43,859 nucleotides of DNA from a virus (Duplodnaviria > Heunggongvirae > Uroviricota > Caudoviricetes), in IMG/VR virus record IMGVR_UViG_2908567220_000006, positions 1 to 43,859 of that record; one strand, written 5' to 3'. The translations under genes were made by a program, and so were the position numbers. Under the pieces are notes generated by a model. It made no database searches and was not told the DNA's origin. It saw only the letters and a program-made list of their open reading frames with translations. Each line of letters opens with the position of its first letter. Positions within the stretch are counted from its first letter, which is position 1. Positions 5,183-33,827 of this stretch are shown piece after piece.

Positions 5183-5245
5183 TTACCCAACAGGTAAATG
5201 CACCTCATGGGTAACTATCCTTGATTTTTGTTACCTTATAGGTGA
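5183..5245. promoter_or_regulatory. oR-like operator cluster with divergent pRM-like and pR-like promoters
   Basis: Three palindrome copies in the 154-bp repressor-cro intergenic region: 5183-5197 perfect, 5200-5214 GCACC..GGTAA, 5231-5245 TTACC..GGTGA. Candidate pR: -35 TTGATT 5221-5226, -10 GAATAT 5244-5249. Confidence 0.6.
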
Positions 5246-5281
5246 ATATTTATTATCTGAAATAAATATCAGGCAATAGCT

Positions 5282-5533: not shown

Positions 5534-5557
5534 AGACCGCCATCCGGCGGTCTTTTC
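5534..5557 (+). terminator. intrinsic terminator after cro (tR1-like)
   Basis: Perfect 8-bp stem AGACCGCC-ATCC-GGCGGTCT followed by TTTTC; a palindrome copy (5568-5582) lies immediately downstream. Confidence 0.6.
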
Positions 5558-5663
5558 ATATCTATTCGTACCTCAAAGGTAATAAAAAACCAAATATGGT
5601 TGATCTTTTTTTTTGTGTCAGCACAAAATAACCGTAATCCCAATACTAATAACAGGGCTTACC

Positions 5664-5864
5664 ATGGAAATCATTACACGTATTGATGCCGCAAAGCGCG
5701 GACTTAAACGCTACTACACCGGAAAACCATGTAAGCACGGACATGACAGTGAACGCTGGGTTTACAACGGACACTGTGTTGAGTGCACCATGGAATCAAA
5801 CCGTCGCATCAGGGCAGAGATTAAGCAGATCATGATTAATTCCTCCCCACAACACTCAAGCTGA
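5664..5864 (+). CDS. small putative zinc-binding protein in cII position
   Basis: Start taken at MEIITRIDAAKRG; Cys/His cluster (CKHGH...CVEC). Confidence 0.4.
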   Translation: MEIITRIDAAKRGLKRYYTGKPCKHGHDSERWVYNGHCVECTMESNRRIRAEIKQIMINSSPQHSS

Positions 5865-5879
5865 TAGCGGAGATTAATC

Positions 5880-6695
5880 ATGAGCAGACATGCAACAGAT
5901 TGGGCCTGGGAGACAGATCCAGGTAGCTCATCATTAAAGCTCATACTGCTCTCGATGGCTGACAGAGCCGATGAATATAACCTCTGCTACCCCAGCATAG
6001 AACGCCTCGTTAAAGACACTTGCCTGAATAAAAAAACCGTGCAGGCCGGGCTTATATCGCTCATGAAAATGGGGCTTATTTCAGATACCGGAGATAGAAA
6101 GGGAGCGACAAAAAGAGTGCGGGTTTTCTCTCTTAATATAACCAAAAACGGGAACATTAAAGGCAACCGGGAAGGGGGTAATGAACCCGAAAACGGTAAT
6201 GTTACCGAAAACGGGAATATACCCAAAAACGGGATGTTGAATGATCCCAAAAACGGGATGTTGAATGATCCCAAAAACGGGATCCAGAACCAGTCATATA
6301 ACCAGTCATTTAACCAAGAGAGGGAGAGCAGGACAAAAAGCGGGGATTCTGTGCCTCATGACCCCGGCGCAAACAACGCCGTGATGAATAACTTTGTTCC
6401 TCCTGGTTGGCCAGGGCAATTAGGCAAATTTGTCATGCATGAACAATGGCAACCATCAGATGACTTTCTTCGGAAAAGCTCATTGCAGGGGATCTACCTG
6501 GACAGTCTGCCAACGGCACAGGAACTTGCAGAGTTCAGAATTTACTGGATGGCTGAGGGTAAGGCATACCATCAGGCACAGTGGGAGCAGAAGCTGGCAA
6601 GGAGGCTGCAGATTAGCAGACAGAAGCAATCAACATTACCTGATAACAACGTTCCGCACTGGAACAGCCCTGAAGCATGGGAGGATTTCTTGTGA
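5880..6695 (+). CDS. replication initiator (O-like; N-terminal winged-HTH, C-terminal DnaT-like domain)
   Basis: 271 aa; Asn/Gly-rich repetitive linker encoded by iteron-like DNA repeats; directly upstream of the P-like helicase loader. Confidence 0.7.
   Translation: MSRHATDWAWETDPGSSSLKLILLSMADRADEYNLCYPSIERLVKDTCLNKKTVQAGLISLMKMGLISDTGDRKGATKRVRVFSLNITKNGNIKGNREGGNEPENGNVTENGNIPKNGMLNDPKNGMLNDPKNGIQNQSYNQSFNQERESRTKSGDSVPHDPGANNAVMNNFVPPGWPGQLGKFVMHEQWQPSDDFLRKSSLQGIYLDSLPTAQELAEFRIYWMAEGKAYHQAQWEQKLARRLQISRQKQSTLPDNNVPHWNSPEAWEDFL
6140..6285. repeat. iteron array (putative replication origin) inside initiator gene
   Basis: Six copies of CC(C/G)AAAACGGGAA-like units spaced 18-24 bp, including a perfect tandem 24-bp duplication cccaaaaacgggatgttgaatgat at 6222-6269. 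Confidence 0.55.
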
Positions 6696-7477
6696 ACAAC
6701 GTTTTTACCGCGATACAAAACCGTGACGGAGAAGCCCTTTCTCGCATGTCAGGTTATGAGCATCAGTACACCAACAATGATAACGTGGTGAACATGTCAG
6801 CAGAGAGGCTTGTTGATGCCCTTTTCAAACAGCTGAAACAACTGTTTCCGGCGGCAGTGGTAACCAACCTGAAGACGCCAGAGCAGGAAGTTGCTGCAAA
6901 ACAGCAGTGGATTGCTGCGTTTGCCGAAGGGGGGATCCGAACCCGTGAACAGGTTTCTGCTGGTATGCGCCACGCCCGCGCCAGTGAATCTCCGTTCTGG
7001 CCGTCGCCTGGGCAATTCATCAAGTGGTGTAAAGACAGCAAGATGGTTCTTGGCGTCACCATTGACGATGTGATGGCGGAGTTTAACCGGTACAGCAAGG
7101 AAAAAAGTTTATATCCTGGTGGTCCCGAAAGATTCCCGTGGCGACATCCGGTTATGTACTGGGTCGTATGTGATACCCGCCGTGCAATGTATCAGCGCCA
7201 GCTTAGCGAGATTGAGGTTGAGAAACACGCGCGCAAGCTGCTCGATGATTGGGCGAAAAAGGTGGCTTCCGGACAGCAGATACCCGATCCGGTGATCAGC
7301 ATACAGGCAAAGCCAGAACCCATGAGTACACCTCCGGACACAGGGAGAGACGTTTACCATCCACCAGGGCGAAGTTTCGGGTGCATGCCTAACGCCGCCA
7401 CCCTTGGTGGAATAACACCGGCGCAGTGGCTGATGGAGGAATACAGGCGAGGAAAGGCGGCAGGATTTATCAAGTAA
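6692..7477 (+). CDS. replication protein P-like helicase loader
   Basis: Motif SPFWPSPGQFIKWCKD matches the recalled lambda P motif RPFLPSPGQFVAWCRE. GTG start at 6692 with GGGAGG SD preferred over the ORF-track ATG at 6677. Confidence 0.75.
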   Translation: MNNVFTAIQNRDGEALSRMSGYEHQYTNNDNVVNMSAERLVDALFKQLKQLFPAAVVTNLKTPEQEVAAKQQWIAAFAEGGIRTREQVSAGMRHARASESPFWPSPGQFIKWCKDSKMVLGVTIDDVMAEFNRYSKEKSLYPGGPERFPWRHPVMYWVVCDTRRAMYQRQLSEIEVEKHARKLLDDWAKKVASGQQIPDPVISIQAKPEPMSTPPDTGRDVYHPPGRSFGCMPNAATLGGITPAQWLMEEYRRGKAAGFIK

Positions 7478-7514
7478 TACCAGCGCGATAGCGCATTTTT
7501 TTACGCCTCGACAA

Positions 7515-7591
7515 TTACCTGTTAGGTAATAAAATATTCTAAAATCTATTGATTTCGTGTCTTATGTGGTTTTTAATTACCTTAGAGGTAA
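7515..7591. promoter_or_regulatory. two palindrome copies (7515-7529, 7577-7591) upstream of nin-like operon
   Basis: Perfect TTACC-N5-GGTAA copies; the second overlaps the Shine-Dalgarno of the gene starting at 7595. Confidence 0.5.
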
Positions 7592-7594
7592 ATC

Positions 7595-7939
7595 ATGAGA
7601 AAACAGATACAGGCTCTTGGTCGACTCAAAACAGGCCAGATGAACAAAACAGAATCTGCGTATTGCCAGCACCTTGAGCAGCGTAAACGTGCAGGGGAAG
7701 TCGCCTGGTATCGGTTCGAGGGTATCAAGCTGCGGCTGGCTGACAACACGTTTTATACGCCCGATTTCGCTGTGATGCTCGCCACCGGAGAGATGGAACT
7801 GCACGAAGTGAAAGGTTTCTGGACCGACGACGCCAGGGTGAAAATCAAAGTCGCCGCAGATCAGTATCCGTTCCGAATCATCGGGGTAACGGTTAAACCA
7901 AAGAAAGCAGGTGGTGGCTGGAAAATCGAAGAGTTCTGA
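7595..7939 (+). CDS. DUF1064-like phage protein (inferred)
   Basis: 114 aa; family assignment is from memory of the motif pattern, not a search. Confidence 0.45.
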   Translation: MRKQIQALGRLKTGQMNKTESAYCQHLEQRKRAGEVAWYRFEGIKLRLADNTFYTPDFAVMLATGEMELHEVKGFWTDDARVKIKVAADQYPFRIIGVTVKPKKAGGGWKIEEF

Positions 7940-8000
7940 ATCGACGATCTTTTTAGTTACCAATGTAATCAATAAGTTATGTGGATAAGCGAGGGTAAAG

Positions 8001-8579
8001 ATGGAAAGTAATATTAAAGGGTTAGTTTCCGCCGGGCATGAGATGGCTTCGGAACTGAAAGCAGAATGTGGTGCCGTTGATATGCGCAGTGTGGCAAAGC
8101 TGATCAGCGATTTGGCAACGCAACTGGAAGTGCAACTGGTGCGTGCTAATGTGCTGGCCGAAGACCACCAGAAAGCGATTGAGTCAATTAAGCAGGCTGA
8201 TGCGGCTGTTAAGTTTGCACACGAGAAGTTTTCAGCGCTGGCGGCGGAGAATGCGGGGCTGAAGTCTGGCGCTATGGACGAAATCAAGGTTATCAACCGT
8301 GGAGGGCAGGCATATTGCGTAAAAGATGGAGTGCAAGTTAATCCCATGTATGCAAGAGGGTGGAATGACTATCGCGCAAAGTCTCTGCAATCAGACACCC
8401 CAGCCACCGACTCTTTCCTGTCTGAAGTACGGGCGCAGGGGGTGGATATGGCTCGTAACGCGATGATTGATTTTGTTGATGGTGAAGTTGGGCCAAACAA
8501 GAACGTTCCGGGGCTGATTAGAGGCGCAGAGATATGCGTAAGTATTGCTGAACAGCTTCGCAAAGGAGGCAGCCAGTGA
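8001..8579 (+). CDS. hypothetical phage protein
   Basis: 192-aa ORF in a compact plus-strand operon. Confidence 0.5.
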   Translation: MESNIKGLVSAGHEMASELKAECGAVDMRSVAKLISDLATQLEVQLVRANVLAEDHQKAIESIKQADAAVKFAHEKFSALAAENAGLKSGAMDEIKVINRGGQAYCVKDGVQVNPMYARGWNDYRAKSLQSDTPATDSFLSEVRAQGVDMARNAMIDFVDGEVGPNKNVPGLIRGAEICVSIAEQLRKGGSQ

Positions 8580-14927: not shown

Positions 14928-15004
14928 TGGCGTGGCATGCAGGATTCGAACCTGCGACCAACCGCTTAGAAGGCGGTTGCTCTGTCCAGCTGAGCTAATG
15001 CCAC
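14928..15004 (-). tRNA. tRNA-Arg (anticodon UCU)
   Basis: Manual fold of the reverse complement: 7-bp acceptor stem GTGGCAT/ATGCCAC, D-arm GCTCAGCTGGACAGAGC, anticodon stem ACCGC/GCGGT with loop CTTCTAA, T-arm GCAGGTTCGAATCCTGC, discriminator G plus CCA. Acceptor stem differs from my recollection of host argU. Confidence 0.9.
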
Positions 15005-33560: not shown

Positions 33561-33827
33561 GGCGATCACCTTTGTAGTTAGGTTAATCACCACCGCTGAG
33601 ACCAATCAGATGGTGGTGAACTGTGCAGAGTTGGTCTTACCGGCTACAAAGGAACCCGGCGCACCTTTCGGTGCCCCCACACAGCCCACCATAGAATAGG
33701 TGCGCTTTACACATAAAAAAACCGCTTATGCGGCATATGTGCCTCTGTAGTAATCCGGGAGACCAATCCCGGCACTGGATTTTGCCAGTGCCCGATTACT
33801 ATGGCACAAGAGGAGTGCGATGTAAAT

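Follow-up and report, generated by a model that had tools for sequence, protein, structure and literature searches.

The 43,859-bp stretch of viral DNA analysed here (the window) is a phiV10-like (Uetakevirus) prophage, and its sequence suggests that region 6139-6346 is, with good probability, the replication origin, embedded in the linker-coding part of the prophage's own initiator gene. An origin inside the initiator gene is textbook knowledge for λ. The initiator gene here (5880-6695, plus strand) takes the position of λ O and contains the origin elements. Its open reading frame (ORF) encodes 271 residues with two Pfam domains, HTH_36 (residues 18-67) and a DnaT DNA-binding domain (residues 184-252). 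The origin region holds an array of six direct repeats, then three short boxes containing GAACC, and then a purine-rich tract. To judge from their sequence, the six repeat units are very probably the initiator binding sites.

The repeat core, CCNAAAACGG, occurs in six exact copies in the window, all on the plus strand within 6142-6280 (starts at 6142, 6187, 6205, 6223, 6247, and 6271), while shuffled sequence contained 0.32 copies on average and at most 4. The original prediction, made from the sequence before this analysis, had described six repeats at 18-24 bp spacing. The number is confirmed, but the start-to-start distances are 45, 18, 18, 24, and 24 bp, and therefore not all fall in that range. 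The units lie at 6139-6154 (iteron 1, TAACCAAAAACGGGAA), 6184-6199 (iteron 2, AACCCGAAAACGGTAA), 6202-6217 (iteron 3, TTACCGAAAACGGGAA), 6220-6235 (iteron 4, TACCCAAAAACGGGAT), 6244-6259, and 6268-6283 (iterons 5 and 6, both ATCCCAAAAACGGGAT). Iteron 5 forms a perfect dyad, ATCCC/GGGAT, and iteron 6 the dyad GATCCC/GGGATC. The 45-bp gap between iterons 1 and 2 contains a decayed unit at most; CCGGGAAGGG at 6167-6176 (plus strand), with 3 mismatches to the core, is a faint trace that may represent one. Tandem Repeats Finder reports units of 18 bp (3.1 copies, 6177-6232), 24 bp (2.6 copies at 100% identity, 6222-6283), and 12 bp (AACCAGTCATAT, 2.4 copies, 6288-6316), so that three tandem-repeat systems are nested within 6139-6323. 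The perfect 24-bp repeat begins at 6222, inside iteron 4. Positions 6222-6245 and 6246-6269 are exactly identical, as predicted, and the third copy runs on for 14 nt. No iteron-like copy was found elsewhere in the window.

The array begins at codon 88 of the initiator ORF, directly after the region that encodes the N-terminal winged-helix domain (residues 1-87, 5880-6140, plus strand). This domain, conserved in an alignment of 19 diverse homologues, is the presumed reader of the iterons. All units of the window lie in a single frame of the ORF and encode the peptide TKNG..PENG..TENG..PKNGMLND (twice)..PKNGIQNQSYNQSFNQ, in keeping with the predicted Asn/Gly-rich linker of an O-like gene. The ATCCC/GGGAT arms of the 24-bp units also create three GATC (Dam) sites within 42 bp, at 6243-6246, 6267-6270, and 6281-6284. 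These sites are not conserved in the Vibrio and Providencia arrays and are therefore probably incidental.

A tandem repeat in frame with a gene may simply be coding sequence. The units could be a slippage-prone, low-complexity linker (rich in Asn, Gly, Pro, and Lys) between two domains, with no cis-acting function in the DNA and with the origin elsewhere. The single frame throughout the window, length changes in multiples of 3 without exception, the conservation of the peptide motif [PT][KE]NG as well, and the failure to find a strong AT-rich region adjacent to the array are what this explanation would expect. However, comparison with relatives argues that the repeats are under a constraint on the DNA itself, whatever they encode. 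In 12 of 25 homologues, a single gene reads the same core in 2-3 frames, for instance as TQKRD and PKNGS in Providencia, and as TQKRN, TKNGT, and PETEL in Desulfovibrio. In addition, synonymous positions are frozen. When units were defined by the peptide pattern only and compared with the rest of the same genes, Pro was encoded by CCC in 53 of 53 cases, against 17% elsewhere (p = 1e-31), and CCC is the rarest Pro codon in the window (8%). Lys was always AAA (46/46), Glu always GAA (22/22), and Asn nearly always AAC (47/48, against 39% elsewhere). In many lineages, the units further carry dyads whose arms differ between lineages and match each other (ATCCC/GGGAT, ACCCG/CGGGT, ACCCCC/GGGGGT, GTCGGA/TCCGAC, AGTGCCA/TGGCACT, and GTACCAA/TTGGTAC), for which coding gives no rationale, and the arrays of distant family members encode entirely different peptides at the same place. 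A purely coding tandem repeat does not fit this pattern, and we regard a linker without DNA function as quite unlikely. The original prediction had named this very alternative, coding low complexity with no conservation at the DNA level, as the finding that would overturn it. The idea of an origin survived the comparison with relatives through the reading frames, the frozen synonymous sites, and the blastn matches to the repeat segment given below.

Among relatives, the array goes with the N-terminal domain of the initiator and not with its C-terminal domain or the partner gene. Used as the query of a genome scan, the N-terminal domain yielded 27 loci from Gamma-, Beta-, Alpha-, and Deltaproteobacteria, and all full-length genes among them have a repeat array at the same place. 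The C-terminal domains of these array-bearing homologues vary (DnaT, λ-O type, or an unassigned type), and so do the genes 3' of them (λ P, DnaC/IstB AAA+, Toprim-DnaB, or methylases). In whole-gene blastn searches against phages, Vibrio anguillarum phages (71% identity) and Edwardsiella phage GF-2 (80% identity) align over the repeat segment only. They share the N-terminal domain at about 55% amino-acid identity, and the GF-2 initiator has a λ-O-type C-terminus. Conversely, the initiator of Tyrion, which combines the same DnaT C-terminus as in the window with another N-terminal domain, does not contain these repeats, and the phiES15 initiator, with a Phage_rep_O N-terminus, has different ones. 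More diverged N-terminal domains accompany entirely different units. By sequence comparison, then, the iterons co-vary with the cognate DNA-binding domain of the initiator, as expected of its binding sites.

A circular E. coli plasmid of 8,461 bp, NZ_CP148379.1 (L120), carries at 5594-8307 a repressor-like gene, a cro-like gene, ydaT, an HTH_36-DnaT initiator gene with CCCAAAAACGG units, and a short P gene. Its replication module holds little beyond the cro-like gene, ydaT, the initiator gene, and P. The plasmid resembles λdv and may be a natural mini-replicon of this module, which lends circumstantial support to the origin reading.

The dyads also bring up an action on RNA or transcription, in which hairpins formed by neighbouring arms would cause antisense transcription to terminate or pause, or would give the mRNA structure. 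A consensus scan indeed marks two terminator-like sites on the minus strand, 6273-6254 and 6249-6230, each consisting of GGGAT-N8-ATCCC from adjacent units followed by a T-run. However, terminator-like matches stand at the shuffle expectation (4 vs 3.1), and the stems have 6 pairs only, 3 of them G-C. Lineages without the dyads (Her, Providencia) retain their arrays, and the linkage of the array to a DNA-binding domain would be left unexplained. An RNA-level role as the reason for the repeats is therefore very improbable.

Directly after the last unit, the window has three 12-bp GAACC boxes, AACCAGTCATAT, AACCAGTCATTT, and AACCAAGAGAGG (6288-6323, plus strand), which are a constant element of this class of origin. 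Every homologue has 2-4 copies of RGAAYCnnYCA (12-13 bp) in this place, spaced 12-14 bp apart, and the junction between the last iteron and the boxes is fixed at 3-4 nt, usually CAG. In the locus numbering of this analysis, the boxes are found also at L007 1654-1690 and L008 1607-1650, in L012-L035, and in L122-L162. Their conservation extends from E. coli to Acinetobacter, Sphingobium, and Desulfovibrio. About ten genes translate them as QNQS and then EPVI, changing from frame 2 to frame 0; the boxes of the window and those of Acinetobacter keep one frame, and in one locus the ORF stops inside the boxes. The paired-box pattern was not found in the initiators of λ, phiES15, Tyrion, Rac (YdaU), or epsilon15. 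In 225 kb of flanking DNA, 40 of 44 paired-box matches fall in the expected 320-nt segment of initiator genes. When the box pattern alone was searched for in 2.9 million viral contigs, 41 loci were returned; at 37 of these, the boxes belong to an ORF that encodes the same N-terminal domain and has an array 5' of them. The arrays at these loci are often composed of quite different units, for example TGCCATCAGATGGCA or GGTCAGATTCTGACC. Since the boxes stay constant next to unrelated arrays, it is the iterons that vary with the initiator.

We tentatively propose that the boxes are a previously undescribed constant origin element of a large phage family of HTH_36-type initiators. They would mark the site of duplex opening or a single-strand contact made by an invariant surface of the initiator, and the iterons alone would form the phage-specific address. 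This is a possibility that we put forward with less than even confidence. Short repeats at a fixed distance beside the initiator sites are familiar from the RK2 (TrfA), F (RepE), and pPS10 (RepA) plasmids and from oriC (13-mers, DnaA-trios), and the duplex opens there. Like these origins, the window has putative initiator sites in an array and, on one side of it, further short repeats; the GAACC boxes take the same relative position. Unlike them, the boxes are not AT-rich and have no sequence similarity to the known elements. A role in unwinding or in single-strand contact is our leading guess, in which the boxes may be analogous to the oriC 13-mers, the DnaA-trios, and the repeats of plasmid duplex unwinding elements.

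The boxes are followed by the purine-rich tract (6316-6346, plus strand). It takes the position of the A-rich tract of λ and of relatives from Vibrio, Pseudoalteromonas, and Acinetobacter, in which that tract comes after the boxes, but it is not AT-rich. The least stable 40-mers near the array are 6123-6162 at its left edge (GC 0.30) and 6281-6320 on its right flank (GC 0.38). DnaA boxes occur at chance level in the window, with none near the array.

According to another explanation, the units are initiator sites used mainly for control, that is for autoregulation, titration, handcuffing, or incompatibility and exclusion of related phages, and initiation takes place at a separate site. Iteron plasmids, whose sites are known both to initiate and to limit replication, provide a precedent. 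In Stx phages, 4 of 6 iterons are strongly bound in vitro and the others still matter (PMC7466680). The copy number of the units is also freely variable in the present family. However, no other repeat cluster, iteron copy, or DnaA-box cluster was found in the window that could serve as an alternative origin. The operon promoter (5228-5256) lies about 0.9 kb upstream of the array, and the fixed junction between the array and the GAACC boxes, together with the A-rich tract of relatives, resembles an origin core. We consider it unlikely that the units serve mainly for control.

Several observations nevertheless weigh against an origin in this region. A marked AT-rich unwinding region was not found in the window, and of all 40-mers in the window, about 10% have lower stability than 6281-6320. 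The minimum of the cumulative GC skew, at ~4-6 kb, coincides with the divergent early promoters and is therefore uninformative on replication. The records of phiV10 and epsilon15 contain no rep_origin feature. Within the window, perfect dyads of at least 5 bp are limited to units 5 and 6 (5-6-bp arms), the other units having 3-4 bp, and such dyads were not found in several lineages that kept their arrays, Her and Providencia among them. Since the window units share one frame, the frame argument rests on relatives. Finally, slippage and conversion homogenise the units within a gene, so that they are not independent and the codon statistics are inflated. With these points taken into account, we still hold an origin at 6139-6346 to be the probable function of the region.

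The number of units is not fixed. The original prediction had proposed comparing copy number across related prophages, and close relatives differ by whole units. In 80 IMG/VR contigs whose N-terminal domain is at least 98% identical, the genes contain 4 to 9 exact cores. The protein clusters range from 271 to 311 residues, and the longest has eight consecutive PKNG units and 11 units in all, so that alleles span 4-11 units overall. Such differences among near-identical relatives indicate that the array is unstable on short time scales. The arrangement in the window (816 bp; spacings 45, 18, 18, 24, and 24) is the commonest allele, found in 43 of the 80 contigs. Therefore, the predicted recent expansion holds only in part: the array is indeed polymorphic, but the 24-bp duplication belongs to the standard allele and is not a private recent event. 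The accompanying suggestion that copy number could change origin strength is reasonable by analogy with the work on extra iterons in Stx phages (PMC7466680).

By analogy with λ, we infer that the initiator binds the array, unwinds the adjacent DNA, and directs helicase loading. In this mechanism, the N-terminal winged-helix domain would bind the six CC(N)AAAAC GG units, with dimers probably occupying those that have dyad symmetry, and build a multimeric nucleoprotein complex. The DNA beside the array would be destabilised, either on the right at the GAACC boxes and the purine-rich tract or on the left, where the least stable 40-mer lies. The P-like protein carrying host DnaB would then be recruited by the C-terminal part of the initiator, and transcription from the early-right promoter would traverse the origin, as it does in λ. 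The repeats would encode a peptide that serves as a tolerant linker. If so, whole in-frame units of 18 or 24 bp could be gained or lost by slippage, which would give the alleles with 4-11 units. The linker between the domains may be disordered, a suggestion drawn from its composition only. A single-sequence AlphaFold2 model of the initiator had a mean predicted local distance difference test score of 36.9 and was unusable.

The predicted likeness to the λ origin within gene O is supported by the layout, an HTH_36 and DnaT gene that overlaps a Phage_lambda_P gene and has its repeats right after the DNA-binding domain, though this initiator is not of the λ O family. The λ record annotates four iterons, ATCCCTCAAAACGAGGGA and variants, at spacings of 20, 24, and 23 bp in O codons ~117-145. 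They start immediately after the Phage_rep_O domain (residues 22-115) and are followed by an A-rich tract. As in λ, the repeats in the window occupy a linker-coding segment inside the initiator gene, right behind the N-terminal DNA-binding domain; the units look alike, the best form in the window (ATCCCAAAAACGGGAT) being, like ATCCCTCAAAACGAGGGA in λ, a dyad centred on an A-tract, with spacings of about 18-24 bp; and the next gene is of the λ P family and overlaps the initiator stop codon. Unlike λ, the window has six units with shorter arms, has GAACC boxes, and has no 40-bp AT-rich block. In addition, its C-terminal domain is DnaT-like and does not correspond to the λ O C-terminus. Its N-terminal domain matches Pfam HTH_36 but not Phage_rep_O (PF04492), which λ O and phiES15 O match at 6e-36. 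A comparison by hhalign of the window N-terminal profile with the λ O N-terminus gave a weak match (11% probability over 43 columns). However, a published HHpred analysis assigns HTH_36 to λ O (PMC5509034), so a distant homology is possible.

Other lambdoid phages provide parallels for particular features. Among Stx phages, P27 and 933W carry six-iteron origins and correspondingly longer O proteins; iteron number differs between related phages and is proposed to alter the initiation complex (PMC7466680). Here too, extra iterons inside the gene lengthen the initiator. The Stx initiators, however, are true λ O homologues with experimentally mapped binding, while the window belongs to a different family known from sequence, and its polymorphism of 4-11 units is much wider. 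In P22 and phage L, iterons are predicted inside gene 18, a distant O-like gene (PMC8022706). There as here, the origin is deduced from imprecise direct repeats in the initiator gene, and each initiator type has its own repeat sequence. The initiator family and the repeat sequence differ, and the partner in P22 and phage L is a DnaB-type helicase, gp12, and not a P-type loader. The experimentally known oriJ of Rac was considered as a relative and rejected, as K-12 YdaU is a DUF1376 protein of another family. The epsilon15 module also differs, with a DnaT-like protein of 225 residues and no P gene.

DopC and DopE are a domesticated O/P-like pair of Cellvibrionales and Oceanospirillales (PMC5509034). 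Like the window initiator, DopC combines HTH_36 with a C-terminal DnaT motif and is encoded beside a λ-P-like gene. No iteron-like sequences were found in dopC, and the authors concluded that it is no longer an origin (PMC5509034). In contrast, the gene in the window lies in a prophage and has kept its full array, which suggests that it represents the phage-type ancestor state of DopC. Within Oceanospirillales, Marinobacterium stanieri (L013, 2501-3415) has an HTH_36 and DnaT-type gene that contains both GAACC boxes and a complete iteron array, in contrast with the iteron-less DopC reported for this order. The next gene in L013 encodes a Dam methylase, and the locus is therefore likely a prophage.

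Origins inside the initiator gene are routinely deduced for other lambdoid phages, such as phage L (PMC8022706), and a study of Stx phages lists HTH_36-type replication genes with no origin analysis (PMC8951638). Literature searches with the motif strings returned unrelated matches only, for instance papillomavirus E2 sites, ACCGAAAACGGT. Neither this origin with its iterons nor the GAACC boxes were found described in the literature searched, though the phiV10 or epsilon15 genome papers may mention them.

The window shares 97-98% identity with Uetakevirus-like phages over about 70-76% of its first 25 kb. Its initiator is 97-99% identical to phiV10 gp43, annotated there as 'replication initiation protein'. 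Among 5,426 complete E. coli genomes, 424 contain the gene, where it is annotated as 'DnaT-like ssDNA-binding domain-containing protein', 'primosomal protein', or 'helix-turn-helix'. The region encoding the DnaT-like C-terminal domain (residues 184-252) is 6429-6635 (plus strand), and this domain matches the DnaT chains 6aep and 4ou6 of the PDB at E about 1e-20. The gene for the λ-P-family helicase loader follows at 6677-7477 (plus strand; Phage_lambda_P, E 1.5e-56) and overlaps the initiator stop codon; the phiV10 annotation starts the P-like gene at the position equivalent to 6692. Within the early-right operon, the initiator and P-like genes are placed as they are in phiV10. On their 5' side are a minus-strand repressor-like gene and a cro-sized ORF, together with the promoter-like site at 5228-5256 and a terminator-like hairpin at 5534-5553. 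Directly 5' of the initiator gene, a small ORF (5664-5864, plus strand) encodes a Cys/His-rich protein of 66 residues (..KPCKHGH..NGHCVECT..) that has no Pfam match and is conserved in phiV10 (gp42) and epsilon15 (gp40).

At the other end of the initiator gene, the last ~40-47 nt (window 6650-6695; L009 1501-1547; L010 1501-1537) encode VPHWNSPEAWEDFL. This stretch has 89-95% DNA identity in Tyrion, which has a different N-terminal domain, and in phiES15, which has a λ-O-type N-terminus. In all three, the P-like gene comes next. The tail may be a shared contact for P, a segment for translational coupling, or a recombination joint. Farther away, Rfam detects a C4 antisense RNA (78.6 bits) adjoining isrK (74.7 bits) above the gathering score at 33609-33791 (minus strand), a P1/P7-type RNA pair for antirepressor control, and the prophage carries a tRNA-Arg(TCT) gene at 14928-15004 (minus strand).

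In this study, we examined the repeat array of a common prophage initiator gene. The layout is an ordinary, λ-like one, in an initiator family that is poorly described and has a second conserved DNA element. The constant box element is the one feature that merits experiment. If the gene were recognised as an initiator gene that contains an origin, a common prophage module for replication would be annotated correctly. Alleles with 4-11 units occur naturally and are ready material for relating iteron number to origin strength, a question already being studied in Stx phages (PMC7466680). The finding further shows the form of the DopC/DopE pair in its phage ancestor, before domestication. With iterons that vary and GAACC boxes that stay constant, the family offers a simple system in which the address of a phage origin may be separated from its opening function.

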